Below are positions 92-22,500 of a stretch of 22,850 nt of DNA, in pieces. Each line of letters begins with the position of its first letter. Within the stretch, counting starts at the first letter, position 1. The notes under the pieces were generated by a model. It worked only from the letters and a program-made list of their open reading frames with translations, was not told the origin of the DNA and did no database searches. The position numbers were made by a program, and so were the translations under genes. The DNA comes from Planctomycetales bacterium (GTDB lineage: Bacteria > Planctomycetota > Planctomycetia > Planctomycetales > Planctomycetaceae): the NCBI GenBank assembly GCA_016235885.1, contig JACRIH010000533.1:1-22850 (forward strand). Reading direction: 5' to 3'.

Positions 92-166
92 TCCGGGGCG
101 GTTGCTGCTGGTAGCAACGTCTGGCTCTGAACCAGAAGGTCGTTGGTTCGATTCCAACCCCCGGAA
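92..166 (+). tRNA. tRNA-Gln (anticodon CTG)
   Basis: Acceptor tccgggg/ccccgga is fully complementary. Anticodon arm tctgg-CTCTGAA-ccaga. T-arm GTTGG-TTCGATT-CCAAC. Length 75 nt. Confidence 0.8.
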
Positions 167-170
167 TTGA

Positions 171-243
171 AGGCAGAAGGATGAAATCGCTCGTGACCCC
201 AACCACTCGCCAAACGTTCATCCTTCATCCTTCTGCCTTTTTT
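171..243 (+). terminator. Inter-tRNA hairpin followed by a T5 run (terminator-like or processing element)
   Basis: 15-bp perfect inverted repeat aggcagaaggatgaa / ttcatccttctgcct (171-185 and 224-238) with a 38-nt loop. Followed by ttttt immediately before tRNA-Ser. Confidence 0.35.
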
Positions 244-329
244 GGAAGTCATCCGGCCGGATGAGGGACCTGTCCCGAAAACAGGTGGCGAGTTGAACTC
301 GCTTGTGGGTTCGAGTCCCACGGCTTCCG
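244..329 (+). tRNA. tRNA-Ser (anticodon CGA), class II with long variable arm
   Basis: Acceptor ggaagtc/ggcttcc. Anticodon arm cctgt-CCCGAAA-acagg. Variable-arm hairpin gcgag-ttgaa-ctcgc. T-arm GTGGG-TTCGAGT-CCCAC. Position 33 reads as C, which is atypical. Confidence 0.65.
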
Positions 330-519
330 CTGAACAAGGGCTCATGGTCCAACAGCAAGACGTCGGTCCTGCAAACCGGAGATTCGGGTGCAACTCACGG
401 TGGGTCCATTTTGAAGAGTTGAAGAGTGAAGGGCGAAGGGTGGAGGGCGAAAACAAAGTTGGGCAACCACGTCGTGGTACGCTTCGTGTTTTTCATTCTT
501 CTCACTTCACTCTTCATCC

Positions 520-591
520 GGTCCCGTGGTCCAGCGGCGACGACTTCTGGCCTACACCCAGACAACGATGGTTCGAGTCCATCCGGGATCA
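520..591 (+). tRNA. tRNA-Val (anticodon TAC)
   Basis: Acceptor ggtcccg/cgggatc (one G-U pair). Anticodon arm tctgg-CCTACAC-ccaga. T-arm GATGG-TTCGAGT-CCATC. 3-bp D-stem; C at position 33. Confidence 0.65.
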
Positions 592-599
592 TATTGATT

Positions 600-673
600 G
601 TCCTCGCGGAGCAGCTCGGAATGCTCGCCACCCTGTCACGGTGGAGACGTGGGTTCAAATCCCATCGAGGACG
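600..673 (+). tRNA. tRNA-Asp (anticodon GTC)
   Basis: Acceptor gtcctcg/cgaggac. D-stem gagc/gctc. Anticodon arm ccacc-CTGTCAC-ggtgg. T-arm GTGGG-TTCAAAT-CCCAT. Confidence 0.8.
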
Positions 674-696
674 TTTGGTGATGTGATATGTGATTC

Positions 697-778
697 GCGT
701 CGGCTGGGCATCGGCGTGCCCAAGTGGCCGTAACCCACCCGCCTTCGGGCAATGCAGGTTCGACTCCTGCTCGACGCA
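697..778 (+). tRNA. tRNA-Tyr (anticodon GTA), long variable arm
   Basis: Acceptor gcgtcgg/tcgacgc. D-stem gggc/gccc. Anticodon loop CCGTAAC. Variable arm gcc-ttcg-ggc. T-arm GCAGG-TTCGACT-CCTGC. Confidence 0.65.
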
Positions 779-785
779 TTGTTTC

Positions 786-858
786 GGCCCGTTCGTCTAT
801 TGGTACAGGACGCCAGCTTCTCACGCTGGCAAGGCGAGTTCGATTCTCGCACGGGTCA
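786..858 (+). tRNA. tRNA-Glu (anticodon CTC)
   Basis: Acceptor ggcccgt/acgggtc. D-arm gtctattggtacaggac resembles canonical tRNA-Glu. Anticodon arm ccagc-TTCTCAC-gctgg. T-arm GGCGAG-TTCGATT-CTCGC. Confidence 0.8.
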
Positions 859-938
859 TCTACGAGTATTTGTGTAGCCCCTGCCCTCGTGGCCGGCACA
901 AGGCCGGCGGCTACGACGGCCAGATTGATGGAAGATTC

Positions 939-1021
939 GACCGAGTGGTGAAATTGGTAGACACGCGACGCTCAGAACGTCGAGCCGTCAAGGCATGGGA
1001 GTTCGAGTCTCCCCTTGGTCA
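939..1021 (+). tRNA. tRNA-Leu (anticodon CAG), class II
   Basis: Acceptor gaccgag/cttggtc. D-arm tggtgaaattggtagacac is typical of tRNA-Leu. Anticodon arm cgacg-CTCAGAA-cgtcg. Variable-arm stem gcc/ggc. T-arm GGGAG-TTCGAGT-CTCCC. Confidence 0.85.
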
Positions 1022-1106
1022 TCGTTATCGACGCAGGTGAGCCAGTGCTCAGCCGAGGCTCATAACCTCAGCCCGCCGGGTGCGACCCCCGGACCTGCCA
1101 CTTGCC

Positions 1107-1176
1107 GTAGGTCAGGCTTTCCAGCCTGACTCGTTGGGCTGTCAACACACAGGTCAGGCTGGAAAGCCTGACCTAC
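1107..1176. repeat. Nested-palindrome (BIME-like) element between tRNA-Leu and tRNA-Ser
   Basis: 24-bp arms gtaggtcaggctttccagcctgac / gtcaggctggaaagcctgacctac are exact reverse complements with a 22-nt spacer. Each arm also contains its own 8-bp palindrome gtcaggct..agcctgac. Confidence 0.6.
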
Positions 1177-1190
1177 GACAAGATCCTCTC

Positions 1191-1276
1191 GGAAGGTAGC
1201 CGGATACGGTTGGCCGGGCCGCACTGCTAACGCGGCTCTCGTCACTGAGATGAGGGTTCGAATCCCTTGCCTTCCG
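1191..1276 (+). tRNA. tRNA-Ser (anticodon GCT), class II
   Basis: Acceptor ggaaggt/gccttcc (one G-U). D-stem ccgg/ccgg. Anticodon loop CTGCTAA. Variable-arm stem tctc/gaga. T-arm GAGGG-TTCGAAT-CCCTT. Confidence 0.75.
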
Positions 1277-1380
1277 CTGAATGTTTGTTTCGTGACATGG
1301 TGTTCGTGGTGTACCGGTGTGCATGCGACTCTGTGAAAGTCGAGGCGGTGGGTTCAACTCCCCTCGAACACCCTGCTGTG

Positions 1381-1490
1381 AATGATGAATTTCGAATGAC
1401 GAATGACGAACCGGCACCGATGCCGTTCGAGCATTCGACATTCGTCATTCTTTCGTCATTCGGATTTCGTCCTTCGTCATTCCCCCACAG
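1381..1490. repeat. Inverted blocks of tandem decamers GAATGACGAA ... TTCGTCATTC (copy 1)
   Basis: Left block gaatgacgaatgacgaa; right block ttcgtcattctttcgtcattc...ttcgtcattc, in opposed orientation. Lies immediately upstream of the HNH gene start. Confidence 0.7.
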
Positions 1491-1497
1491 GTGCATC

Positions 1498-2091
1498 ATG
1501 TCGGCGGTTCTTACTCGACCAACGCTCGTGCTCAACCGGAACTGGCAACCGGTGGGTGTGGCCTCGGTGTCGCGCTCGCTGATCCTGTTGTGGAACGACA
1601 ACGCGCGCGTGGTCGATCCGGCGGACTTCCGGCTGTACACGTGGAGCGATTGGTCGCGAATGATTCCGCTCGCGGATGAACCGTTCATCCAGGCGGTTCG
1701 GTCGCGGCTGCGGGTGCCGGAAGTGATTTCGCTGACGAACTTCGACCGCGTTCCGATGAACGGGGTGACGTTCAGCCGGCGGAACATTTATCGGCGTGAC
1801 CGTTACACGTGTCAGTACTGCGGTTCGCAGCCGGGGAGCGAAGAACTGACGATCGATCACGTCCTGCCGCGGGCGCAGGGGGGAACTTCGATGTGGGAGA
1901 ACTGTGTTCTCGCATGCGTCGCTTGCAACAAGCGCAAGGCCGACCGCACGCCCGAACAGGCGCACATGCCGCTGCACAAGCGGCCGGTTCGTCCCTCATG
2001 GAAGCCGCACTACGCCACGCGCGGAGTCCGGATCGACAGTTGGTCCCGCTTCCTCAGTGAAGCGTATTGGAATGTGGAACTGAATGCGTAG
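1498..2091 (+). CDS. HNH endonuclease (COG1403 / McrA-like), 197 aa
   Basis: Translation starts MSAVLTRPTLVLNRNWQPV, the N-terminal motif typical of this family. C-terminal motif CQYCGS...LTIDHVLPRAQGG...WENCVLACVACNKRK has the C-X2-C...DH...N...C-X2-C arrangement. AGGTG lies 7 nt upstream of the ATG. The long ORF in the track begins inside the repeat/tRNA region and was trimmed. Confidence 0.85.
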   Translation: MSAVLTRPTLVLNRNWQPVGVASVSRSLILLWNDNARVVDPADFRLYTWSDWSRMIPLADEPFIQAVRSRLRVPEVISLTNFDRVPMNGVTFSRRNIYRRDRYTCQYCGSQPGSEELTIDHVLPRAQGGTSMWENCVLACVACNKRKADRTPEQAHMPLHKRPVRPSWKPHYATRGVRIDSWSRFLSEAYWNVELNA

Positions 2092-2109
2092 CGGAAAGCT
2101 TTCAGCAAT

Positions 2110-2171
2110 CAGCGGTCAGCGATCAGCCAATCGGTTGAGGCTGACTGTTGAAAGCTGATCGCTGACCGCTG
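2110..2171 (+). terminator. Long hairpin downstream of the HNH gene
   Basis: 18-bp perfect inverted repeat cagcggtcagcgatcagc / gctgatcgctgaccgctg around a 26-nt loop. There is no clear U-tract, so function as a terminator is uncertain. Confidence 0.35.
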
Positions 2172-2175
2172 CCAC

Positions 2176-2245
2176 ACGAGTGTGCTCCTGGGAGAGCCAG
2201 TGGTCTCCAAAGCCGCTTCATGAGGTTCGAATCCTCACACTCGTG
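2176..2245 (+). other. Degenerate tRNA-like element (possible tRNA pseudogene or integration-site remnant)
   Basis: Perfect acceptor pairing acgagtg/cactcgt and canonical T-arm TGAGG-TTCGAAT-CCTCA. No canonical anticodon arm can be folded, and the element is only 70 nt long. Confidence 0.4.
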
Positions 2246-2248
2246 CTG

Positions 2249-2296
2249 TTGGAGTCCCGGCTTCAGCCGGTCTGCCGCCTGAAGGCGGGACTCCAA
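2249..2296 (+). other. Compact three-way-junction structure following the tRNA-like element
   Basis: Outer stem ttggagtc/gactccaa encloses two hairpins, ccggc-ttca-gccgg and ccgcc-tgaa-ggcgg. Confidence 0.35.
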
Positions 2297-2299
2297 CCT

Positions 2300-2373
2300 G
2301 CCGACGTGGCTCGACTGAGAAAGGCATCTGTCCCGTAAACAGACTCATGCTGGTGCGAATCCAGTCGTCGGCT
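2300..2373 (+). tRNA. tRNA-Thr-like (anticodon CGT), non-canonical D-arm
   Basis: Perfect acceptor gccgacg/cgtcggc. Anticodon arm tctgt-CCCGTAA-acaga. T-arm GCTGG-TGCGAAT-CCAGT (G at position 54). D-arm cannot be folded canonically and position 33 is C. Confidence 0.5.
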
Positions 2374-2394
2374 CTTGGTTCAAAGTTTGTTTTG

Positions 2395-2512
2395 GGAGTG
2401 CTCCGGCTTGACGGAGCTTTGGAATTTTTTGCGAAGCACTTTCGCCATCCTATAGAAACGGAAAGAAAGTCGCTCCGCGACAATTCCAAAGCTCCGTCAA
2501 GCCGGAGCACTC
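2395..2512. repeat. MITE-like palindromic element with 32-bp perfect terminal inverted repeats
   Basis: ggagtgctccggcttgacggagctttggaatt (2395-2426) is the exact reverse complement of 2481-2512. Interior carries hairpins gcgaa..ttcgc and GTCGCTCCGCGAC. This element generates the mirror-image ORFs 2347..2598 (+) and 2235..2672 (-). Confidence 0.75.
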
Positions 2513-2518
2513 CAAAGT

Positions 2519-2589
2519 TGCCCTGCGGGTGTGCCGGAAGCATGACAGACTTCGAATCTGTCGGACGAGGTTCGATTCCTCGGTGGGGT
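2519..2589 (+). tRNA. tRNA-Arg-like (anticodon TCG), weak acceptor stem
   Basis: Anticodon arm acaga-CTTCGAA-tctgt. T-arm CGAGG-TTCGATT-CCTCG. Acceptor gccctgc/gtggggt needs three G-U pairs and the D-arm is poor. Followed by tttttt. Confidence 0.45.
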
Positions 2590-2599
2590 GTTTTTTGAA

Positions 2600-2670
2600 C
2601 GTCCTCGGAGTGTGGTGGATGCATGCGACCGTGCGAAGGTCGAAGATCAGGTTCGACTCCTGACGGGGAC
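2600..2670 (+). tRNA. tRNA-Arg-like (anticodon reads GCG, unusual)
   Basis: Acceptor gtcctcg/cggggac. Anticodon arm cgacc-GTGCGAA-ggtcg. T-arm TCAGG-TTCGACT-CCTGA. D-arm has G-U pairs; anticodon GCG is not a standard bacterial Arg isoacceptor. Confidence 0.45.
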
Positions 2671-2719
2671 ATCCGTGTTCGATCCGTGTTTCATCCGTGG
2701 CAAAAAAACAATTCCTCCC

Positions 2720-2791
2720 GACGCTGTTGCCGGATGGTCCGGCCACTGTCTGCAAAGCAGTTCTTCGTGGGTTCGATTCCCACCGGCGTCT
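2720..2791 (+). tRNA. tRNA-Cys (anticodon GCA)
   Basis: Acceptor gacgctg/cggcgtc. D-stem gccg/cggc. Anticodon arm actgt-CTGCAAA-gcagt. T-arm GTGGG-TTCGATT-CCCAC. Confidence 0.8.
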
Positions 2792-2801
2792 TCAAGGAAA
2801 A

Positions 2802-2842
2802 GTAGGGTGGGACCAGCTCGCGAAGCGAGTGCAGGCCCACCA
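2802..2842. repeat. REP-like unit GTAGGGTGGGAC..GAAGCG..GGCCCACCA (single copy)
   Basis: Same motif order as the palindromic dimer at 8206-8290. Contains a ctcgc-gaa-gcgag hairpin. Confidence 0.55.
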
Positions 2843-2992
2843 TTGCCGAGATGATGATTCGTCATGACCAGACACGAGCAATTTCAAGCAAGGTTGACGC
2901 AGCCGGGCCAGCGGCGCATCAAGACCTGTCCTGTTCGCAGGCGGTTGTCCGAATGTGTTCCGCGAGTGGGTTCTAACGAAGGCTGTGTCGGC

Positions 2993-3065
2993 GAGTGGTT
3001 AGCTCAGTGGGTAGAGCACCAGACCGTGAATCTGGCTGTCACAGGTTCGACTCCTGTACCAACTG
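2993..3065 (+). tRNA. tRNA-His-like (anticodon GTG), imperfect acceptor stem
   Basis: Perfect D-arm agctcagtgggtagagc. Anticodon arm ccaga-CCGTGAA-tctgg. T-arm ACAGG-TTCGACT-CCTGT. The acceptor strands gagtggt/accaact have two adjacent mismatches. Confidence 0.5.
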
Positions 3066-3480
3066 CGGTGTGAAAAACCGCTCCAAAACGCGAAAGCGTT
3101 TACCAACCGGCCCGACGGTGGCGGGCGAATGATTGATCTGCGGATGCTTCGTTGATGTGCTCTCGTAATTGAGTGCTGCTCGACGTCGGCCGAAAGGCTG
3201 GCGGATGAGTCAGCGGATTGCGGGCCGTGCATCGCGAACATCGGCAACGTGACGGTTTGCTTTGCAGGGCGTGGATTCAGCCATCGCAAATTTCGGACAG
3301 ACGGTCGTGGATGCTGGTCGGACGCTCGCGTGACATTTGTCCGCGAGCGACAAAACCAGACGAAGCGACCGAACCTCCGCAGCTCGCGATGGCTCAAACG
3401 TCTCTCCGCATCCCGGCGCGGGATTAACAATCGTTTCGCCACCTGACGGCAATTCAACTTCCTCTCCACAGCGGGGGAGA

Positions 3481-3660
3481 GGACGGGAGTGGGGAATGAC
3501 GAATTCCGAATGACGAATGACGAATGAATGACAAAGCTCGAATGACGAACACGAGCCTTCACTTCGAGTTCACTGCCTGAATGCGTCACCGGCGAATTCG
3601 GCATTCGGCATTCGTCATTCGGAATTCATTCGTCATTCGTGCTTCCGCCATTCGTCATTC
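3481..3660. repeat. Inverted blocks of tandem decamers GAATGACGAA ... TTCGTCATTC (copy 2)
   Basis: Left block has four or more gaatgacgaa-like units; right block has cattcgtcattcg units in opposite orientation. Upstream of the SPFH gene. Creates the HSSFVI-repeat artefact in the minus-strand ORF 2999..3604. Confidence 0.7.
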
Positions 3661-3671
3661 CACACCGCCCC

Positions 3672-3707
3672 TCACCCCCGACCCCTCTCCCCCAAAGGGG
3701 AGAGGGG
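3672..3707. repeat. REP-like hairpin CCCTCACCCCCGACCCCTCTCCCCC-aaa-GGGGAGAGGGG (copy 1)
   Basis: Stem cccctctcccc / ggggagagggg. A near-identical copy lies at 19474-19509. Its 3' arm, ggagaggggagaag, sits directly before the SPFH ATG and acts as a Shine-Dalgarno sequence. Confidence 0.65.
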
Positions 3708-3712
3708 AGAAG

Positions 3713-4840
3713 ATGAAACGAAAGGACGCTCTCATGTACCCGATCAATGTCATCAAGGTCCGCGACTACGAAATGGGACTCCGGTTCCGAGACGGAGAAT
3801 TCCGCGGACTGTTCGCGCCGGGCCGGCACTGGCTGTTCGACCCGCTCCGCAAGGTGCGCGTGGCTGTCGTGTCGCAGCGCGATCCGTGGCTGGTTCACGA
3901 GAAGCTCGACCTGATCGTCAAGTCGGGTGCGCTGCGCGACCGCGCGGTCGTGCTCGATCTGAAGGATCATCAGCGGGCGCTGATCTGGATCGACGGTCGA
4001 TTCAGCCACGTGCTGCCGCCTGGTCTGTACGCGTACTGGAACTCGCTGCGCGACGTGTCGGTCGAAGTGATCGATGCGCGCGACGTTCGATTCCAGCACA
4101 AGGATCTGTCGGTGATCGCGCGGTCGCCGCTGGTGGATCGAGTTCTCGAATTCATCACGGTCGAAGCGGGTCACGCCGGCGTGCTGCTCCGGGATGGCGA
4201 CTTCGTGGAAACGCTGCCGCCAGGCCGGTACGCGTTTTGGAAGAACGTCGCGCAGAGCAAGCTGATCCCGGTGGATCAGCGCGAAGCGATGCTCGATGTG
4301 GCCGGTCAGGAAATCATGACGTCGGACAAGGTCACGCTGCGCCTCAACGCCATCGTGACGTTCCGTGTTGTCGATCCGCGCCGCGCCGTCAGCATTGTGG
4401 ATGACGCCCGTCAGGCACTGTACCGCGAGGCACAGCTCGCCCTGCGAGCCGTCATCGGCACGCGCGAACTCGACCTGTTCCTGACCGACAAGGACTCCGT
4501 CGCGAAGGACTTGGAAGAGATCGTCCGGCGTCGCGTGTCGGCGTTTGGTCTGGAAGTCGTTTCGATCGGTATCCGCGACGTGATCCTGCCGGGCGACATG
4601 AAGGATCTGATGAACAAGGTGACGGAAGCCAAGAAGGCAGCCGAAGCAAACCTGATCGCCCGTCGTGAGGAAACGGCGGCGATGCGCAGTCAGGCCAACA
4701 CGGCCAAGCTGCTGGAAGGCAACCCAATGCTAATGCGGCTGCGCGAACTGGAAGTTCTCGAAAAGGTCGCGGCATCGTCCAAGCTCAACGTCGTGCTGGG
4801 CGAAAAGGGGTTGGCCGATCGGATTGTCAACCTGTTGTGA
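3713..4840 (+). CDS. SPFH / band-7 (stomatin-prohibitin-like) domain protein with three N-terminal repeats, 375 aa
   Basis: C-terminal half (IVTFRVVDPRRAVSIVDDARQALYREAQLALRAVIGTRELD...) has the SPFH pattern. N-terminal half has three repeats of about 45 aa, each containing LPPGxYAxW. Start chosen at ATG 3713 after the GGAGAGGGGAG sequence; the longer track ORF begins inside the repeat array. Confidence 0.85.
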   Translation: MKRKDALMYPINVIKVRDYEMGLRFRDGEFRGLFAPGRHWLFDPLRKVRVAVVSQRDPWLVHEKLDLIVKSGALRDRAVVLDLKDHQRALIWIDGRFSHVLPPGLYAYWNSLRDVSVEVIDARDVRFQHKDLSVIARSPLVDRVLEFITVEAGHAGVLLRDGDFVETLPPGRYAFWKNVAQSKLIPVDQREAMLDVAGQEIMTSDKVTLRLNAIVTFRVVDPRRAVSIVDDARQALYREAQLALRAVIGTRELDLFLTDKDSVAKDLEEIVRRRVSAFGLEVVSIGIRDVILPGDMKDLMNKVTEAKKAAEANLIARREETAAMRSQANTAKLLEGNPMLMRLRELEVLEKVAASSKLNVVLGEKGLADRIVNLL

Positions 4841-4852
4841 TTTGTGAAACGA

Positions 4853-4888
4853 ACCCGGAGGCTGAGCAATCGGCCTCCGGGTTTTTCT
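4853..4888 (+). terminator. Rho-independent terminator of the SPFH gene
   Basis: Stem acccggaggc / gcctccgggt followed by TTTTTCT, 13 nt after the stop codon. Confidence 0.75.
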
Positions 4889-4897
4889 GTCGTGCAT

Positions 4898-4995
4898 GCG
4901 GCTACGTAGCCATCACGCTCCGCGTGATGAGCCGAATGGCCAATCGACGTCGCATCCCGATTCGGCTCGTCACGCGGAGCGTGACGGCTACGTTA
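4898..4995. repeat. Nested-palindrome element with CGCTCCGCG core (family copy A)
   Basis: Left arm ggctacgtagcc-ATCACGCTCCGCGTGAT-gagccgaat. Right arm attcggctc-GTCACGCGGAGCGTGAC-ggctacgt. The arms are imperfect reverse complements and each arm is itself palindromic. Confidence 0.65.
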
Positions 4996-5001
4996 AGTCC
5001 G

Positions 5002-5550
5002 TCAATTCCCGCTGAACATCTGTAGTTCCTCATCCTTCATTGGATGCAGGCGGTGGACTTCGATGATCTTCCAGTCGGCCCCCTCCCGCTGCCACTTGAG
5101 TTCCCATCGCGACGGTTGATGCCCGGCGTTTGTCTGCTGGTACGAAACGGTCCCGTTGGCTCGGAACCGAGTCTTCGCGAGCGTTTCGCCGGCGAGCAGC
5201 GTCACCTGCACATCTTTTTTTTGGAGGAGGTTCAGGTTTTTGACGTTCTCGAGAGCGGCGTCTTTGGACATTTTCAGCAAGACCTCGCGCGCGGAGAAAA
5301 AGCTCAGCGTTCGATCGCGATCCGTGCGCTGAAACGCGGCGGTCAGGTCGCGGATGTTCTGTTCCAGTTGCTCGGCAGTCGTGACCACGAAGTGATCGAC
5401 GACAAACGCTGTCAGGGCCAGCGTGATGGCGGCGACGGCTCCGATCAGCAGACCTTTTCTCCGCTGCTGGTTCCAAACGACGAACAAGCCGACCGCTGCG
5501 ATCAGGCACGGAACGATGAGCGGCCACGGGTTTTCGGTGATCAGTCCCAT
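5002..5550 (-). CDS. Hypothetical membrane-anchored protein (two N-terminal TM helices, NTF2/SnoaL-like C-terminal fold guessed)
   Basis: ORF MGLITENPWPLIVPCLIAAVGLFVVW...LLIGAVAAITLALTAFVV..., then a soluble domain ending WKIIEVHRLH. ATG at 5548-5550; the track ORF starts 3 nt earlier at a TTG. No confident family assignment. Confidence 0.65.
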   Translation of the reverse strand: MGLITENPWPLIVPCLIAAVGLFVVWNQQRRKGLLIGAVAAITLALTAFVVDHFVVTTAEQLEQNIRDLTAAFQRTDRDRTLSFFSAREVLLKMSKDAALENVKNLNLLQKKDVQVTLLAGETLAKTRFRANGTVSYQQTNAGHQPSRWELKWQREGADWKIIEVHRLHPMKDEELQMFSGN

Positions 5551-5787
5551 CAATGAGAATCGCCGTCAGAAGGACGCTGGCCGCGAGTTACAAGGCCGCA
5601 GACGGAACGAACTATAGCCGTTCAAACGCCCGTTTCAATTGGCTTCGCAGCGTGCGGAAAATGCCCGCTGCGGTCGCTTGAATCCCCACGCGGGTTTTGT
5701 CATAGTCCAGCCCTTCTCCAACGGACCAACTGGGCCAGCGGTCGCGGTGCGACCCGGCGAGCAAAGTAGACCCGCAGAAGAAGTTTT

Positions 5788-5853
5788 GTAGCCACGCTCG
5801 CCAAGAGCGTGGGTTTTCCGCGATTTTCCCCACGCTCTTGGCGAGCGTGGCTA
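5788..5853. repeat. 26-bp perfect inverted repeat, nested-palindrome type, upstream of nuoH
   Basis: gtagccacgctcgccaagagcgtggg and cccacgctcttggcgagcgtggctac are exact reverse complements with a 14-nt T-rich spacer. Each arm holds an 8-bp palindrome ccacgctc..gagcgtgg; the left one is followed by gttttcc, giving a terminator-like hairpin. Confidence 0.7.
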
Positions 5854-5892
5854 CCCCGAGATCAATGCGGTTACACTTGGCAAAGGTGAAGT

Positions 5893-7212
5893 ATGCCCGC
5901 ACTGTTTGCGGCGGACAGCAGCATCGCGAAGTTTCTTTCCGATCATATCGGTGAGACGTGGGGCTACGGCCTTACCGCGCTGATCCACGCCGTGCTCATC
6001 ATCCATTTTTTCGCCGTCGCGCCGCTGTTCTACATCTGGCTGGAACGGAAGGTGGCCGGGCGAATTCAGGATCGGCTGGGACCGACCCGCGTCGGCGGCA
6101 AGTTCGGCTGGCTGCAAACTTTGGCCGACGGCATCAAGCTGATTCAAAAGGAAGACCTCTGCCCGGGCGCGGCCGACAGGTTCCTGTTCCGGCTGTCTCC
6201 GTACTTGGTGTTCGTGGCCTCGTTCGGCGCGTTCCTGACGCTGCCGTGGTCCGACGGCTGGATCGCTCAGAATCTCGACATCGGTGTGTTTTTCATGCTG
6301 GCGGTGATGTCGCTGGAAGTCATCGGCGTGGTGTTCGCCGGGTATTCGAGCGGTTCGAAATGGGCGCTGTTCGGTGGCATGCGCGAAGCGGCTCAGGTCG
6401 TGAGCTACGAAATCCCGATGGCGATCTGTGCCCTCGTGCCCGTCATCGTCGCCGGGACGCTGAACATGGTGGACATCGGCCGGATGCAATCAGGTTGGTT
6501 CACCAATTGGTTCGTGTTGCACGACCCGTTTTGTTGTCTCGCGTTTTTCGTCTACTTCACCGTGGCCACGGCCAGCGTCAAGCGGGCACCGTTTGATCTG
6601 GCGGAAGCGGAAAGCGAACTCGTCGCCGGATTCCACACGGAATACAGCGGCATTCGCTGGTCGTACTTTTTCATGGCCGAATACGCCAGCATGTTTGCCG
6701 TGTCGGGAATCGCGACCGCGCTCTTCCTCGGCGGTTGGTACACGGGGATTGCTCCCATCGACGAAGGTTTGTTTGCCTCGATTCGCGAAGTGGGAGGGAG
6801 TCCGGCGGAAGGCGTGACGACTCTCGGCAGCTACGTCGTCAACCTCATCGGGATGACGATCTTCCTCGTCAAGGGAAGCGCTCTGGTGTTCTTCCAAATT
6901 TGGATCCGCTGGACACTCCCGCGGCTCCGCATCGATCAGGTGATGACCACCTGCCTGAAGTATTTGCTGCCGATCAGTTGCTTCCTGCTCGTCGGCGTCA
7001 GCGTGTGGCCGCTGTTGCTCAATTCCTGCATTGGGCGGACGACGCTGGTTCCCGGCGAAGCGGCCGCGCTGGGGAACAAGGTGCCGCGCGTCGCACCGAC
7101 AACTACCGGCCGAAAAACGGTGGCGATCTCACTCACAAACGACCACGGCGAAACGATTCCGGGAATCCTGTTTGATCCTGTGCCAATTACTGCTACTGCG
7201 GAACGAGAATAG
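5893..7212 (+). CDS. nuoH: NADH-quinone oxidoreductase subunit H (NuoH/ND1) with a C-terminal extension of about 60-100 aa
   Basis: WLERKVAGRIQDRLGPTRVGGKFGWLQTLADGIKLIQKEDL is the NuoH signature. The core ends near RIDQVMTTCLKYLLPISCFLLVGVSVWPLL and is followed by an extension without cysteine motifs. AGGTGA sits 6 nt before the ATG. Confidence 0.9.
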   Translation: MPALFAADSSIAKFLSDHIGETWGYGLTALIHAVLIIHFFAVAPLFYIWLERKVAGRIQDRLGPTRVGGKFGWLQTLADGIKLIQKEDLCPGAADRFLFRLSPYLVFVASFGAFLTLPWSDGWIAQNLDIGVFFMLAVMSLEVIGVVFAGYSSGSKWALFGGMREAAQVVSYEIPMAICALVPVIVAGTLNMVDIGRMQSGWFTNWFVLHDPFCCLAFFVYFTVATASVKRAPFDLAEAESELVAGFHTEYSGIRWSYFFMAEYASMFAVSGIATALFLGGWYTGIAPIDEGLFASIREVGGSPAEGVTTLGSYVVNLIGMTIFLVKGSALVFFQIWIRWTLPRLRIDQVMTTCLKYLLPISCFLLVGVSVWPLLLNSCIGRTTLVPGEAAALGNKVPRVAPTTTGRKTVAISLTNDHGETIPGILFDPVPITATAERE

Positions 7213-8205: not shown

Positions 8206-8290
8206 TGTAGGGTGGGACAAGCGAAGCGCTGGCCCACCAAACGCAAAACATCACGATGGTGGGCCTTCGCTTCGCTTGTCCCACCCTACA
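8206..8290. repeat. Palindromic dimer of the GTAGGGTGGGAC..GGCCCACCA REP-like unit, between nuoK and nuoL
   Basis: tgtagggtgggacaagcgaagcg (8206-8228) is the exact reverse complement of 8268-8290. The inner pair ggcccacc / ggtgggcc extends this to an 85-bp near-perfect palindrome. Confidence 0.7.
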
Positions 8291-10658: not shown

Positions 10659-10667
10659 CAGTTCGTC

Positions 10668-10775
10668 GCCCTGTCGCTCCGCGACAGGAAAGCCGAATGC
10701 ATTTGAGTCATTGTTGTTGAAGACACATTCTGAGTCGTCTGGAAACTTGGCTGTCCTGTCGCGGAGCGGCAGGGC
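10668..10775. repeat. Nested-palindrome element with CGCTCCGCG core (family copy B), between nuoL and nuoM
   Basis: Arms gccCTGTCGCTCCGCGACAGg / cCTGTCGCGGAGCGGCAGggc with one mismatch. Each arm is palindromic. The gccgaatg and ggctac segments are shared with copy A. Confidence 0.65.
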
Positions 10776-10808
10776 TACTTTTCGGATTTTAAGGTAAGAC
10801 CTGTCATC

Positions 10809-12398: not shown

Positions 12399-12503
12399 AG
12401 TTGACAGTTTGCCGAACTCGCCAGAGTTCGGAAGCTGTTGTGTTTTCTGAATTCTGGCGAATTCAGCTACGTTCGCTGTCGAAGTGGAACAAAGAACCGG
12501 ACC

Positions 12504-14252
12504 ATGCCGTTTTCCTCCCTGGTTGATTCCCTGATGCAAGACACGCTTGGCGTGTCGTTGCCATTGTTCGCGACGGAATTGGCGATCTGCGCCACGATCG
12601 TGTTGCTGCTGCTGTTCCGATTGTTGAATCTGGACCAGCGAATCCCCGGTGCCGTTCTGGCACTGGCGGGCAGTATTGCCGGGTTGGGTCTGGCGGTGAT
12701 GCAGCATCTGCAATACAGCCAGGAAGCGGATCTTGTCGGTCAGTCGGTCGAAATCTTCACCGGCTTGTTGATCTACGATCAGTTTACGATTTACCTCCGC
12801 ATCTTTCTGATGCTGTTCCTGGTGCTGGTCGTGTACCTGACCATGCTCGGTGGCATTCCCGACCGCGAGGACGCTCCCGATTTCTACGTGCTGCTGCTCG
12901 GTTCAACACTGGGCATGTTGCTGATGGCCAGCGCGAATCACCTGCTGATCGTGTTCCTCGCCATTGAAATGACCAGCGTGCCGAGTTACGCGATGGTCGG
13001 GTTCCTCAAGGGGCGGCGGCAAAGCAGCGAAGCGGCGCTCAAATACGTGGTGTACGGTGCCGGTGCCGCGGGCGTGATGCTGTACGGAATCAGCCTGCTG
13101 TCCGGATTGCTCGGCACGGCCAACCTGCCCGAACTGGCGCAGGCCCTCACCGCACTCGGGGGCGCGGATAGTGCGCTAGATCAGCCGTCCCTGTGGACGC
13201 TGTCGCTGGCCATTTTGATGGTCCTCGTAGGCGTGGCGTTCAAATTGTCGATCGTCCCGTTCCATTTCTGGTGTCCGGACGCTTTCGAAGGCGCGTCGGC
13301 CGAAGTCGCGGGTTATCTCTCGGTTGCCTCCAAGGGTGCAGCGTTCGCGCTGTTGGTAAGATTTTGTCTCGCCATGACTGGTTCGGCGGTCCCTGCTGGT
13401 GATTTGCAGACCGTGTTCGTCCATCTGGGTTTCGGCATCGGGATCATCGCGGCCATTTCAGCGACGTTCGGCAACCTCGCCGCGTACACGCAGACCAACA
13501 TCAAACGGATGCTGGCGTATTCGACCATCGCGCACGCCGGCTACATGCTGATGGCGGTCGCCGCACTGTTGGTCATCCTCGGTTCGCCCGACGCTCCGGA
13601 CGGTGGGGCCCAACGCACCGAACACGCGATCCGCGCCGTATCCGGCTTGCTGTATTACCTCGTCGTGTACCTGTTCATGAACCTTGGAGCATTCGCCATC
13701 GTGGCGATCATCCGCAACCAGACATTCAGCGAACAGATTGAAGACTACTCCGGATTGGTGCGGCAGTCGCCGGCACTGGCCGTGTGCATGCTGGCCTGCA
13801 TGTTCAGCCTGATCGGCATGCCGCCACTCGGCGGGTTCGTCAGCAAGGTGATGGTCTTCGCATCGGTCTTCAAATCCACAGAGTATTACTGGCCGATGTG
13901 GTTCATCCTGTCCGCCGGCGTTCTGAACACCGTGTTCAGCCTGATCTACTACGTGAACGTGCTCAACTACATGTTCTTCAAGCCGCCCCGCGAGCATCTC
14001 GAACCGGTCAACGTTCCATTGGCGAGCGCCTACGGTCGTTATGCCCTCCTCGTAACCCTGCCGGTGTTCCTGCTGGGTGTGATGGTGAACCGGATTGACG
14101 ACGTCGCCTACAGCGCGTCGGCCAGTCTCAAATCGTTTTCCGTTCCAGTCGTCGCCAACCACGACAATGCTGACCCACCCCGGCAGTCGGTCCGTTCGAC
14201 TCCGGCGATCCCCGCCCCCGTCGAAGCTGCCACCCCGGTGTCCGGCGGGTGA
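12504..14252 (+). CDS. nuoN: NADH-quinone oxidoreductase subunit N (NuoN/ND2) with a Pro/Ala-rich C-terminal tail
   Basis: Antiporter-like membrane protein (IEMTSVPSYAMVGFLKG, FHFWCPDAFEGASAEVAGYLSVASKGAAF). Start set at ATG 12504 (MPFSSLV...). Last roughly 90 aa are low-complexity. Confidence 0.85.
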   Translation: MPFSSLVDSLMQDTLGVSLPLFATELAICATIVLLLLFRLLNLDQRIPGAVLALAGSIAGLGLAVMQHLQYSQEADLVGQSVEIFTGLLIYDQFTIYLRIFLMLFLVLVVYLTMLGGIPDREDAPDFYVLLLGSTLGMLLMASANHLLIVFLAIEMTSVPSYAMVGFLKGRRQSSEAALKYVVYGAGAAGVMLYGISLLSGLLGTANLPELAQALTALGGADSALDQPSLWTLSLAILMVLVGVAFKLSIVPFHFWCPDAFEGASAEVAGYLSVASKGAAFALLVRFCLAMTGSAVPAGDLQTVFVHLGFGIGIIAAISATFGNLAAYTQTNIKRMLAYSTIAHAGYMLMAVAALLVILGSPDAPDGGAQRTEHAIRAVSGLLYYLVVYLFMNLGAFAIVAIIRNQTFSEQIEDYSGLVRQSPALAVCMLACMFSLIGMPPLGGFVSKVMVFASVFKSTEYYWPMWFILSAGVLNTVFSLIYYVNVLNYMFFKPPREHLEPVNVPLASAYGRYALLVTLPVFLLGVMVNRIDDVAYSASASLKSFSVPVVANHDNADPPRQSVRSTPAIPAPVEAATPVSGG

Positions 14253-16898: not shown

Positions 16899-16969
16899 TG
16901 GTTGACCTCTCCGAACGAATGGGTCGAGAAAGAATGACCCGGTGTTTTTGAAACGATGCCTCTCTGCGT

Positions 16970-17031
16970 CCTCCGCGCCTCTGCGTGAGCCATCCGTCGT
17001 ATGTATCTTGTCTCACGCTGAGGCGCGGAGG
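16970..17031. promoter_or_regulatory. Inverted repeat and CTCTGCG direct repeats in the divergent Ldh_2 / hydro-lyase intergenic region
   Basis: cctccgcgcctctgcgtgag / ctcacgctgaggcgcggagg is a 20-bp inverted repeat with one mismatch. CTCTGCG recurs at 16962, 16980, 17088 and 17098. Confidence 0.4.
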
Positions 17032-17177
17032 TCGCAGAGTAAAAACCGGATTGCAATTACCGGTGACTCAAAACACGAAGATGCCTTCTCTGCGCTCCTC
17101 TGCGAAATCTGCGTTTCCCCCATTCCGGTCCCAGTAATCACAAGGTCCGGTCCCTGGAAACCGCTCAGTTTGAGTAG

Positions 17178-17236
17178 GTAGACGGGTCACTCCGTGATCC
17201 GAACTTCCGGTCACGGAGTGACCGGTCTACATTCGC
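17178..17236. repeat. Palindromic element GTCACTCCGTGA-N12-GTCACGGAGTGACCGGTCTACATTCG (intergenic copy)
   Basis: 20-bp inverted repeat gtagacgggtcactccgtga / tcacggagtgaccggtctac with one mismatch. A second copy lies at 21941-21998 inside a coding sequence. Confidence 0.7.
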
Positions 17237-19473: not shown

Positions 19474-19509
19474 TCCCTCACCCCCGGCCCCTCTCCCGGG
19501 GGGAGAGGG
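19474..19509. repeat. REP-like hairpin CCCTCACCCCCGGCCCCTCTCCC-ggg-GGGAGAGGGG (copy 2)
   Basis: Near-identical to 3672-3707. Lies 10 nt beyond the DUF1501 stop codon. Confidence 0.65.
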
Positions 19510-19518
19510 GAGGAGATG

Positions 19519-21138: not shown

Positions 21139-21144
21139 ACTGTT

Positions 21145-21355
21145 GCCCCAACGGGGCGCAATTCGATAGCCCAGGGCGCAGCCCTGGGTTGGCAGTTGCA
21201 TCCATCACACGAGCCCCAATGGGGCGCAATATTGGGGATTCCCATATCCTCGACTGCGTCCTCACGCGAATTTCGCCCCGTTGGGGCTATCGCACCAATG
21301 ACCGCCGTTACCCAGGGCTGCGCCCTGGGCTATCGAATCGCGCCCCTTCGGGACT
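21145..21355. repeat. BIME-like cluster of GC-rich hairpins between the DUF1553 and DUF1501 genes
   Basis: 25-bp perfect inverted repeat gatagcccagggcgcagccctgggt (21165-21189) / acccagggctgcgccctgggctatc (21310-21334). Four small hairpins GCCCC-NNN-GGGGC lie in alternating orientation. Confidence 0.7.
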
Positions 21356-21378: not shown

Positions 21379-22500
21379 TCAATCCACAAAAACAAATTCA
21401 TTCAAATTCAACAGCAGCCGGCAAGTGTTGGCCAATCCGTGCTCGCGGGCGTACGTGGTGAGTTCCCGCAGTTCGTCGTCTGTCGGAGGCCGGCTGAGGG
21501 CGAGGCGAAACGCTTGCGTCACCTGTGACAAAATGTCTCCGCCGGGTTTCTCGACTCGGGCGGCGAAATGCTTCGACATGACCACGGTGAGCTGGTTGTT
21601 CAGGAGCGCCAGCGCTTGCAGAGGGGTGATCGTTTGCGTGCGCTTGTCGACCAGCATCGACGGATCGGCGCAGTCGAGCGTGGTCATGAACGGCTGCAAC
21701 TGCGAGCGGACGAGGAACCGGTACACCGACCGGCGATGCGATGCGGGATCGTCCGCGTTGTACAGGTGATATTCGTAGTGCGGCGAGTGCTCGGGCTTGT
21801 CGATCACGAAGTCCTGGAAACTCGGGCCACCGAGCGCGGGGTTGAGCTTGCCGCTGACGGACAGAATCGCATCGCGGATCGCTTCGGCTTCCAGACGCCG
21901 GCGACTTTGTCGCCAGAGGAAACGGTTGTCGGAGTCCAAAGTAGCCGCGTCACTCCGTGACGCGAGTTTCGGGTCACGGAGTGACCCGTCTACATTCGAC
22001 GACTGCCGATACGCCGCGCTCGTCACAATCAGTCGGTGCAGTCGCTTGATCGACTGGCCGCCGTCGCGGAATTCGCTGGCCAGCCAATCGAGCAGTTCGG
22101 GGTGACTCGGCAACTGACCCATTCGGCCGAAGTCGTTCGGCGTGTCCACGAGGCCGTGGCCGAAGTGGTAAAGCCAGACGCGGTTCACGATCGATCGCCA
22201 CGTCAGCGGGTTCTGCGGATCGGTCAGCCACTTCGCGAGGGCGGCACGGCGTGCCCCTTCTGCGTGATCGCTCGGCAGGTTGAATCGAGCCGGCAGCGCG
22301 GCCACCACGGTCAACGCTCCCGGTCCGGCTTCCGCTCCCGGCTTCGTCACGTCTCCGCGCGGCAGGAGGTGAATTGGTCTCGGCTTGCCACCATTCGCTC
22401 CGGTGCCAGAGAAGGCTCCCGAGCCGTGATGGATCGTGCCCGCGAACACGAGGCGCGGCGGAGGCAACTTCGATCCAGCCCAGTTCCAGGCACAACGCAT
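21379..22500 (-). CDS. DUF1553 (PSD1) domain protein, C-terminal part only; appears N-terminally truncated and is possibly a gene remnant
   Basis: LAKWLTDPQNPLTWRSIVNRVWLYHFGHGLVDTPNDFG...HPELLDWLASEF...IKRLHRLIVTSAAYRQSS and the C-terminus LLNLNEFVFVD match DUF1553. There is no PSCyt1/DUF1549 part. Upstream the same frame reaches a stop at 22579-22581, and the other minus frames read as low-complexity sequence. Confidence 0.65.
   Translation of the reverse strand: MRCAWNWAGSKLPPPRLVFAGTIHHGSGAFSGTGANGGKPRPIHLLPRGDVTKPGAEAGPGALTVVAALPARFNLPSDHAEGARRAALAKWLTDPQNPLTWRSIVNRVWLYHFGHGLVDTPNDFGRMGQLPSHPELLDWLASEFRDGGQSIKRLHRLIVTSAAYRQSSNVDGSLRDPKLASRSDAATLDSDNRFLWRQSRRRLEAEAIRDAILSVSGKLNPALGGPSFQDFVIDKPEHSPHYEYHLYNADDPASHRRSVYRFLVRSQLQPFMTTLDCADPSMLVDKRTQTITPLQALALLNNQLTVVMSKHFAARVEKPGGDILSQVTQAFRLALSRPPTDDELRELTTYAREHGLANTCRLLLNLNEFVFVD
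21941..21998. repeat. Second copy of the GTCACTCCGTGA...GTCACGGAGTGACCCGTCTACATTCG element, embedded in-frame in the DUF1553 coding sequence
   Basis: Matches 17178-17236 over about 40 of 46 aligned positions. On the minus strand it is translated as [18 protein letters not shown]. Confidence 0.65.

Follow-up and report, generated by a model that had tools for sequence, protein, structure and literature searches.

A probable family of GTAG-tagged palindromic repeats in Planctomycetota and Verrucomicrobiota, and its candidate transposase partner

Are the paired palindromes that recur between the genes of a planctomycete contig mobile DNA, host RNA hairpins, protein-binding sites or chance products of a GC-rich sequence? 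We address this question for 22,850 nt of a Planctomycetales bacterium (assembly GCA_016235885.1, contig JACRIH010000533.1; this whole stretch is the window, with a GC content of 59.9%) and for two elements in it, A, beside an SPFH gene, and B, between nuoL and nuoM. A preliminary description, made from the sequence alone, had proposed that A and B share an architecture of two opposed hairpins and belong to a family of the repetitive extragenic palindrome (REP) or bacterial interspersed mosaic element (BIME) type. Both elements are present where it placed them, and in each of them one 25-nt unit occurs twice, in opposite orientations. We consider it about 85% probable that A, B and two further doublets in the window represent a GTAG-tagged REP family, here called F1, whose head-to-head doublets resemble REPINs (REP doublets forming hairpins) and are non-autonomous mobile DNA.

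One tagged hairpin unit in elements A and B

The F1 unit consists of GTAG, a C, an 8-bp stem around the loop TCC, and an A, and can be spelled GTAGCC-NNNN-CGCTCCGCG-NNNN-GA, with C-N-T-C-N-C-G-C as the stem and often a tail, (AA)GCCGAAYG, on its 3′ side. All four arms of A and B have a perfect 8-bp stem and the 3-nt loop TCC (GGA on the other strand), and in three of the four GTAG stands one base (C) from the foot of the stem. The left unit of A, for example, pairs CATCACGC with GCGTGATG around TCC and is followed by the tail GCCGAATGG. The left tag of B reads GTCG in the window and is an intact GTAG in L120, a metagenome contig from the European Nucleotide Archive that is syntenic with most of the window (roughly 88–95% nucleotide identity; NuoM 95% identical). 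The segments that the preliminary description found in both elements are parts of this unit: GGCTAC is the reverse complement of GTAGCC, and GCCGAATG is the 3′ tail, GA(AA)GCCGAAYG.

The 9-mer CGCTCCGCG occurs five times in the window against 0.74 expected, a count that none of 100 shuffles reaches, and the 25-nt pattern, allowing up to two mismatches, matches six times against 0.02 expected. As DNA, element A folds into one long hairpin (−41.7 kcal/mol, z = −9.7); element B does the same as RNA (−68.9 kcal/mol, z = −8.8). A covariance model, R1, that we built from 148 distinct units of other genomes (alignment A2) finds eight units in the 22.85 kb, forming four doublets: A, B and two members of a sister subfamily with the stem ..GTCAC-TCC-GTGAC.., both of which the preliminary description had missed (Table 1). 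One of these two, a tight head-to-head pair reading GTAGAC-GGGTCAC-TCC-GTGATCC / GTAGAC-CGGTCAC-TCC-GTGACCGG, lies upstream of the D-glutamate cyclase gene, whose start we placed from the L120 alignment and a gene call. The other lies within a gene and is described below.

Element A is found between the terminator-like hairpin of the SPFH gene, a separate structure followed by TTTTT at the end of that gene, and the stop codon of a convergent 183-aa open reading frame (ORF). We considered A and B as intrinsic terminators themselves and rejected this, as their units run into GA(AA)GCCGA and not into T-runs, and a terminator scan of positions 4700–5200 was empty. An Rfam search of A and B gave no family match, RF01687 (Acido-Lenti-1) included.

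Distribution of F1 and its RAYT-like partner genes

We searched for the exact F1 pattern in genomes, with one genome per species (at least 115 loci), and in metagenomes (at least 120 further loci); all counts, pairings and stem statistics given here refer to the matches listed. The unit is present in more than 230 public loci. Among the 115 listed genome loci, 111 belong to Planctomycetota (Planctomycetaceae, Schlesneria, Pirellulaceae, Gemmataceae, Thermoguttaceae and Lacipirellulaceae) or Verrucomicrobiota (Prosthecobacter and Verrucomicrobiaceae), and the four outsiders are among the few matches whose variable stem positions are not complementary. Copies are dispersed at non-homologous sites, and the matches listed place them on up to seven separate contigs of a single metagenome-assembled genome (MAG).

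The four stem pairs that the pattern leaves unconstrained are fully Watson–Crick complementary in 119 of 140 exact-pattern units, which carry at least seven stem variants (for example ATCA, CTGT, GTCT, CTCT, GTCA, CTCA and ATCT). In A2, pairing extends to 98.7% of cells, and changes on both sides are seen in 201; none of 500 shuffles reaches the observed covariation, and slid registers leave at most 54% of cells paired. Since the relaxed units in A2 were preselected for at least three of four complementary positions, the unfiltered 119 of 140 is the cleaner figure. Single-sided changes of the G-U type account for only 9 of 1,184 cells in this alignment. Across the two phyla there is almost no variation in the GTAGCC tag, in the top of the hairpin (CGC-TCC-GCG) or in the GA tail, in contrast to a freely varying lower stem. 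No base of the tag falls below 90% conservation over the units, though the search pattern itself required the tag.

With relaxed matching we collected 199 F1 units. Neighbouring units are predominantly head-to-head with the tags outside (65 of 73 pairs, with 3 tail-to-tail and 5 in tandem), separated by spacers that mostly measure 0–11 nt or roughly 36–79 nt and span 0–155 nt overall. In four loci from Pirellulaceae MAGs (L005, L031, L048 and L067) the unit is part of a longer shared sequence, TGTCGCGATTTCAAA-unit-TCGCCAACAAGAACTGGACAGTTATTGATT, which points to a composite repeat of larger size in this lineage.

Where do these copies lie relative to genes? We used open frames as a crude stand-in for gene calls and found 20% of 134 elements inside an ORF that runs for at least 100 codons on both sides, compared to 52% for positions drawn at random from these loci; F1 is therefore depleted from genes, though not excluded from them. 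The earlier statement that the elements sit at gene ends thus holds for A and B but not family-wide, as about one-fifth lie inside long ORFs, including one of the four doublets in the window. At this doublet, 21941–21993, the open frame runs on for 171 codons on one side and 186 on the other, and the repeat corresponds to an 11-residue insertion in a DUF1553 protein. Of eight aligned homologues, seven lack this insertion and one carries a shorter, unrelated insert at the same site. Two F1 doublets are likewise in frame in a 1,137-aa PSCyt/PSD1 protein (L111), and one is in frame in a 589-aa protein (L070).

The preliminary description had also proposed a search for a gene of a REP-associated tyrosine transposase (RAYT). 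An ORF search of the window found no RAYT-like gene, and the proposal bore fruit elsewhere, in related genomes and metagenomes where RAYT-like genes are framed by F1. In the metagenome locus L136, F1 head-to-head doublets flank a 223-aa RAYT-like gene on both sides; a homologous gene in L161, also metagenomic, is preceded, 12 nt before its start, by five F1 units. The L136 protein has more than 3,000 homologues at an E value of at most 1e-10, the best 120 of which are roughly 55–65% identical to it, two near-identical ones excepted; homologues are labelled transposase or RayT by their sources and come from Pirellulales, Planctomycetaceae, Planctomycetia and Thermoguttaceae. We examined four of them on longer contigs (L243 to L246). 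Doublets of F1 stand on both sides of the gene in L244 (Planctomycetia), where a GTAG overlaps its stop codon, and in L245 (Pirellulales), and F1 units do so in L243 (Planctomycetaceae); pooled over these three contigs, 10 of 12 units (E value ≤ 0.01) are within roughly 200 nt of the gene. Altogether, F1 is immediately beside an L136-clade gene in five of six independent loci, and on both sides of it in four.

The alignment of this clade contains the motifs NHVH (HUH), (F/L)WQQDGFDHLVR (WQ) and YIADNP (Y-x-x-x-N-P). The protein matches Pfam Y1_Tnp (PF01797) with 25.4 bits at a cut-off of 23, and its alignment to 4ER8, the solved structure of Escherichia coli TnpA-REP, covers the HUH-to-Tyr core. 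Many L136-clade genes are found on contigs of only about 1 kb, as would be expected if assemblies break at the repeats on either side, and many of the proteins bear the Joint Genome Institute label ‘type I restriction enzyme R subunit’, apparently a mis-annotation.

Other candidate partners did not hold. A motif and phmmer search of the first 115 genome loci found RAYT-like ORFs only in L027 and L079, neither of them beside F1 and both framed by unrelated inverted repeats. In L111 and L070, F1 doublets that lie in pairs roughly 1 kb apart were considered as REPtrons, the REP/RAYT arrangements reportedly described by Nunvar et al. in 2010, and proved to be the in-frame insertions in long genes mentioned above. 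The RB11751-type RAYT of Rhodopirellula baltica was rejected as the F1 enzyme: its homologues, which share roughly 60% identity throughout the phylum, have a different repeat around them in three families. In one genome each of Planctomycetaceae, Gemmataceae and Rhodopirellula, genes of this type have doublets of the form GTAG-CYGRAWTC-GCCA-GAWTYCRG on both sides, and R1 found no F1 unit in the RB11751-type loci L116, L117 and L119. These sequences thus give two repeat families, each with a RAYT clade of its own.

The repeat that frames the RB11751-type genes of L116, L117 and L119 is also present in the window, at 12412–12470 in the nuoM–nuoN spacer, as a doublet with a lost left tag (CCGAACTC-GCCA-GAGTTCGG / CTGAATTC-TGGC-GAATTCAG-CTAC). 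The corresponding site of L120 has a different stem and loop variant. By the peptide it would encode, SRIRQEF, this repeat corresponds to GTAG-21 of R. baltica (Di Nocera, De Gregorio and Rocco 2013, BMC Genomics 14:522, PMC3733652).

Gain and loss of doublets, and how they may arise

Element A is missing from L120, and the gap is exactly the 86-bp doublet, from the outer GTAG to the outer CTAC. The window reads ..GCATGCGGCTAC|GTAGCC....GGCTAC|GTTAAG.. where L120 reads ..GCATGCGGCTAC|GAACCG.., so that A sits directly 3′ of a pre-existing CTAC. On both sides it is flanked by GGCTAC(GT), which is its own terminal tag and not an arbitrary duplicated target. This polymorphism would fit cleavage of the IS200/IS605 style, 3′ of CTAC at both ends, and in this single case the doublet, not the single REP, appears to be the unit gained or lost. 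Element B is kept in L120, with conserved arms and a longer, diverged spacer, and the TAG of its left GTAG tag is there the stop codon of nuoL; it is missing from the nuoL–nuoM spacers of two further loci, L121 and L122 (NuoM 77–79% identical). Other sites at which the window and L120 carry different repeats are listed in Table 1.

By analogy with the paradigm of E. coli TnpA-REP and IS200/IS605, each F1 unit would fold into a hairpin on single-stranded DNA, and a HUH/tyrosine enzyme of the RAYT type, with its gene elsewhere in the genome, would recognise both this hairpin and the GTAG ‘guide’ tetranucleotide. By cutting and rejoining the strand, this enzyme would excise the whole doublet or copy it to new sites. 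We infer that the linked RAYT mobilises F1 repeats and that the source genome of the window encodes a cognate enzyme. A and B may in addition affect their neighbouring genes, and B would be co-transcribed if the nuo genes form one operon.

Several points weigh against a mobile REP family with a RAYT partner. The window has no RAYT gene, and the enzyme may be absent and the copies relics. Only two of the roughly 265 F1-bearing loci listed have the gene beside the repeat, so that the pairing rests on six loci, one of which, L246 (Thermoguttaceae), has only degenerate hairpins with the tag GTAC. The L136-clade protein matches NCBIfam REP_Tyr_transpos (NF047646) with 54 bits, below the equivalog cut-off of 80, and its best match to a solved structure, 4ER8, is weak (E value 0.004). 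To our knowledge, transposition or cleavage has been demonstrated for no planctomycete RAYT. The comparison at the A site is a single case, that of the window against L120, and a deletion between the 7–8-bp direct repeats GGCTACG(T) explains it equally well. Finally, an upper stem and loop that are near-invariant across two phyla are unusual for REPs, and could mean that the sequence has a host function as well.

In one rival reading, the hairpins are primarily host RNA elements at gene ends (mRNA stabilisers, processing sites or attenuators), under selection in the transcript, and not mobile DNA. Element A does lie just 3′ of a gene end, and element B, within the nuo operon, would be very stable if transcribed (−68.9 kcal/mol) and keeps its arms between the window and L120 where its spacer has diverged; that E. 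coli REPs stabilise upstream mRNA is established, and is also discussed in PMC3733652. Yet the units come as inverted pairs in both orientations and thus show no strand preference, G-U type changes are rare (9 of 1,184 cells), roughly 20% of elements are in frame inside genes, and copies are gained or lost between close relatives at otherwise conserved loci. Neither A nor B matches an Rfam family, a separate terminator-like hairpin with a T-run already precedes A, and L120 does without A altogether. An RNA-level role could be a secondary effect of single copies, especially B; it does not explain the family, because of the missing strand bias, the few G-U changes, the in-frame copies and the rapid turnover, and we regard a primary role in RNA as improbable.

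A second alternative is a function on DNA that involves no transposase: the near-invariant tag, CGC-TCC-GCG top and GA tail next to a free lower stem are the pattern expected of a sequence-specific partner, which might be a host DNA-binding or nucleoid protein. E. coli BIMEs bind gyrase and IHF. The sole conserved protein found physically linked to the F1 repeat, however, is RAYT-like, of a family that reads GTAG plus hairpin, and the spacers contain no motif comparable to the L motif of BIMEs; we hold a host-protein site to be very improbable. That A and B resemble each other by chance alone, as GC-rich palindromes may at 60% GC, can be set aside as next to impossible: the shared 9-mer core is indeed short and GC-rich, but the core and the full unit are both in excess (5 against 0.74 and 6 against 0.02), the flanks beyond the 9-mer are conserved, and related genomes hold hundreds of copies with complementary variable positions. 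The preliminary description had named a chance frequency without conserved flanks as the outcome that would speak against the family, and the excess and the flanks point the other way. A mobile, GTAG-tagged REP family thus remains our preferred reading of A, B and their relatives.

Relation to known repeats and setting in the window

In Pseudomonas fluorescens SBW25, two inverted REPs with a short spacer reportedly form the unit that is gained or lost, named REPIN by Bertels and Rainey in 2011; copies of one family within that genome are said to be near-identical, and each family to have its own repeat-flanked RAYT. The absence of element A from tag to tag in L120 and the RAYT flanked by the repeat are alike in F1, whereas its spacers vary widely in length and sequence between copies. 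The E. coli BIMEs and TnpA-REP were reportedly characterised by Ton-Hoang et al. and Messing et al. in 2012, 4ER8 being described as a monomeric HUH/Y1 enzyme. F1 shares with them the GTAG next to a palindrome, and the planctomycete proteins align to 4ER8. In contrast to the long, bulged REP of E. coli, the F1 hairpin is a short perfect stem with a triloop; F1 has neither alternating Y and Z types nor the conserved inter-REP motifs (S, L and r), and the planctomycete proteins have an N-terminal region of about 100 residues (RLPHWSQAGT..FITxRTWDSIP) that TnpA-REP lacks. Of the initial REP/BIME reading, then, the REP doublets stand (tagged hairpin, dispersal, turnover and linked RAYT), and the BIME part is not supported, as the spacers are not conserved.

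The Rickettsia palindromic elements (RPEs; reportedly described by Ogata et al. in 2000) are said to measure roughly 100–150 bp and to have no GTAG tag, and we know of no dedicated transposase for them. F1 resembles them in that in-frame insertions into proteins are tolerated (21941–21993, L111 and L070), but its intragenic copies are a minority. The Acido-Lenti-1 motif (RF01687) also has a tag beside an 8-bp stem, a 3-nt loop and an inverted pair arrangement, with stem and loop sequences unrelated to those of A and B. In the window this motif matches at 21144–21188 (−) and 21311–21355 (+), as an inverted pair with the tag ATAGCC, an 8-bp stem and a 3-nt loop; L120 has its pair at another locus, 14049–14244, and none at the site of the window. 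Because the locus of the pair differs between the two, the RF01687 motif behaves like a mobile REP-type doublet and not like a small RNA (sRNA) gene.

Closest to F1 are the GTAG-tagged REPs that have been catalogued together with RAYT genes, among others in R. baltica and Opitutus terrae, in a study that analysed two Planctomyces genomes (Di Nocera 2013, PMC3733652). These REPs have an unpaired GTAG, a stem of 6–13 bp and a loop of 2–3 nt; head-to-head dimers with spacers of 1–5 or 20–100 bp predominate, most copies are intergenic and some in frame, and RAYT genes are framed by the same repeat. F1 is alike in its tag and hairpin, its subfamilies with complementary changes, its head-to-head dimers and its framed RAYT, and differs from most GTAG families, which are restricted to a species or genus, in being near-unchanged over several planctomycete orders and Verrucomicrobiota. 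This kind of element, and its presence in Planctomycetes and Verrucomicrobia, is thus on record since 2013. The peptides that F1 would encode are absent from its intragenic table, and as this table is the part by which F1 was compared with the 24 published GTAG families, F1 may be identical to one of them. The assignment of a conserved RAYT clade to F1 comes from the present analysis and not from that paper, and the definition of F1, its two-phylum breadth, the named RAYT clade and the in-frame copy in the window may be new.

Table 1 Positions of F1 units, other repeats and selected genes in the window, with the state of the syntenic contig L120 where given
Feature	Positions	Strand	In the window	In L120
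Element A, left unit	4906-4930	+	GTAGCC-ATCA-CGCTCCGCG-TGAT-GA; exact pattern match; R1 49.4 bits, E value 3e-11, over 4900-4942	
Element A, right unit	4967-4991	-	GTAGCC-GTCA-CGCTCCGCG-TGAC-GA; exact match; R1 48.5 bits over 4955-4997; GTAG outside	
Element A, whole	4906-4991	.	86-bp head-to-head doublet (REPIN-like), 36-nt spacer	
Solitary GGCTAC (reverse complement of the GTAGCC tag)	4900-4905	+	abuts left end of element A	kept at the empty site
Element B, left unit	10665-10689	+	GTCGCC-CTGT-CGCTCCGCG-ACAG-GA; 1 mismatch; R1 41.1 bits over 10659-10701	
Element B, right unit	10754-10778	-	GTAGCC-CTGC-CGCTCCGCG-ACAG-GA; exact match; R1 35.2 bits over 10742-10784	
Element B, whole	10665-10778	.	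114-bp head-to-head doublet, 64-nt spacer; nuoL-nuoM spacer in nuo operon	
Sister-subfamily doublet	17178-17230	.	pattern matches; R1 30.6 bits (17194-17236, -) and 16.5 bits (17172-17214, +)	
Sister-subfamily doublet	21941-21993	.	tight head-to-head; R1 35.0 and 33.9 bits; in frame in PSD1/DUF1553 gene	
MITE core GTCGCTCCGCGAC	2469-2481	+	13-nt local R1 match, model positions 15-27, 13.2 bits, E value 0.08	
Segment with another GTAG doublet	5765-5879		115 bp	absent
MITE site	2376-2509		MITE	doublet of the 1101-1182 type
nuoM-nuoN spacer			one GTAG variant	different GTAG variant
Site after nuoN			different palindrome	Acido-Lenti-1 pair
tRNA array	92-3066		15 tRNA genes by ARAGORN and one further Rfam tRNA match at 338-408	
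SPFH gene	3581-4840			
Convergent 183-aa ORF	5002-5553	minus		
PSD1/DUF1553 gene	21379-22500	(-)	Pfam PSD1 match	

The window opens with a tRNA array, several tRNAs of which are separated by palindromic repeats and which is interrupted by an ORF at roughly 1496–2090 that corresponds to an HNH endonuclease gene in L120. The SPFH gene, the convergent 183-aa ORF and nuoH, J, L, M and N follow, and downstream of nuoN lie a TatD-family gene, Ldh_2, D-glutamate cyclase and a DUF1553/DUF1501 gene pair. NuoM of the window shares 73% identity with its Symmachiella dynata counterpart, and its named best matches all belong to Planctomycetaceae.

Two further palindromes had been proposed as relatives of A and B. 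The first, at 2392–2516 between tRNA-Thr and tRNA-Arg, resembles a miniature inverted-repeat transposable element (MITE), with arms of 33–35 nt that each contain the hairpin GCTCCG-GCTTGA-CGGAGC; no other copy occurs in 1.65 Mb of related sequence, and L120 has another element in its place. Its core GTCGCTCCGCGAC, which the preliminary description had called almost identical to an arm of element B, is identical over 13 nt to the top of the B-type hairpin, but the GTAGCC tag, the lower stem and the tail are missing, and it is doubtful that the core is a member or fragment of F1; we rejected the whole MITE as a member, given that the 13-nt local match is all it has and that no relatives occur in the fetched loci. 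The second, described earlier as a weaker relative at 16970–17031, is a different palindrome (16962–17039, 31-nt arms, CTCTGCGTCCTCCGCGCCTCTGCGTGAG.., no GTAG tag) in the spacer between the divergent Ldh_2 and D-glutamate cyclase genes. R1 gives no match there at an E value of up to 10, and 1.65 Mb of related sequence hold no relative, so that it too was rejected; L120 has in this region a stretch with an extra 462-aa gene instead.

Other GTAG-tagged or palindromic repeats accompany F1 in this lineage. The 115-bp segment at 5765–5879, which starts with GTAGAC and ends with GGTTAC, encloses at 5788–5854 a perfect 26-nt inverted repeat, GTAG-CCACGCTC-GCCAA-GAGCGTGG-G plus its complement. In the tRNA array, 1101–1182 is a doublet of GTAG-GTCAGGCT-TTCC-AGCCTGAC with relatives in L120 (1733–1813) and L002 (2812–2841), and it is a copy of this type that occupies the place of the MITE in L120. 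The nuoK–nuoL spacer has an GTAGGGTGGGAC.. doublet at 8206–8290 that is shared with L120 (7412–7498), and a related GTAGGGTGGGC doublet lies in the nuoM–nuoN spacer of L122 (2305–2375). A 15-mer, ATGGCCAATCGACGT, occurs both in the spacer of element A (4935–4949) and in L122 (roughly 2328–2345), where it lies in the spacer of a nuo-operon GTAG doublet that is not related to A; it does not recur in other spacers, and we rejected it as a BIME-like internal motif.

Two kinds of shorter repeat complete the inventory. Repeats of the GAATGAC/GAATGACGAAT type form inverted blocks at 1380–1482 and 3494–3660 and in L120 at 2831–2969, and comparable runs are present in L095, L041 and L027, further loci of planctomycete and verrucomicrobial origin. 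Hairpins of the form CCCCTCTCCCC...GGGGAGAGGGG recur at 3682–3707 and 19488–19510, and L120 has a pair of them inserted between nuoJ and nuoK (roughly 6975–7085) that the window does not have.

The F1 hairpin is near-unchanged across several orders of Planctomycetota and in Verrucomicrobiota, beside a RAYT clade whose members are roughly 60% identical. Our tentative suggestion, which we hold to be somewhat less likely than its opposite, is that F1 and the L136 RAYT clade form an unusually ancient and sequence-stable partnership, that peptides from in-frame copies are a regular feature, and that some Rfam ‘sRNA’ motifs like Acido-Lenti-1 are really repeats of this kind. F1 leaves the basic picture of REPs unchanged. 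It does mean that strong palindromes in planctomycete intergenic regions are often F1-type doublets and not terminators, riboswitches or sRNA genes, that such doublets explain short low-complexity protein insertions, such as the one in the DUF1553 protein, and that they may explain assembly breaks around RAYT genes. With several GTAG repeat families side by side in the lineage of the window, two of them with a nameable RAYT clade in related genomes, Planctomycetota are good ground for studying how RAYT enzymes discriminate between hairpins, and whether such systems are inherited vertically over very long times.

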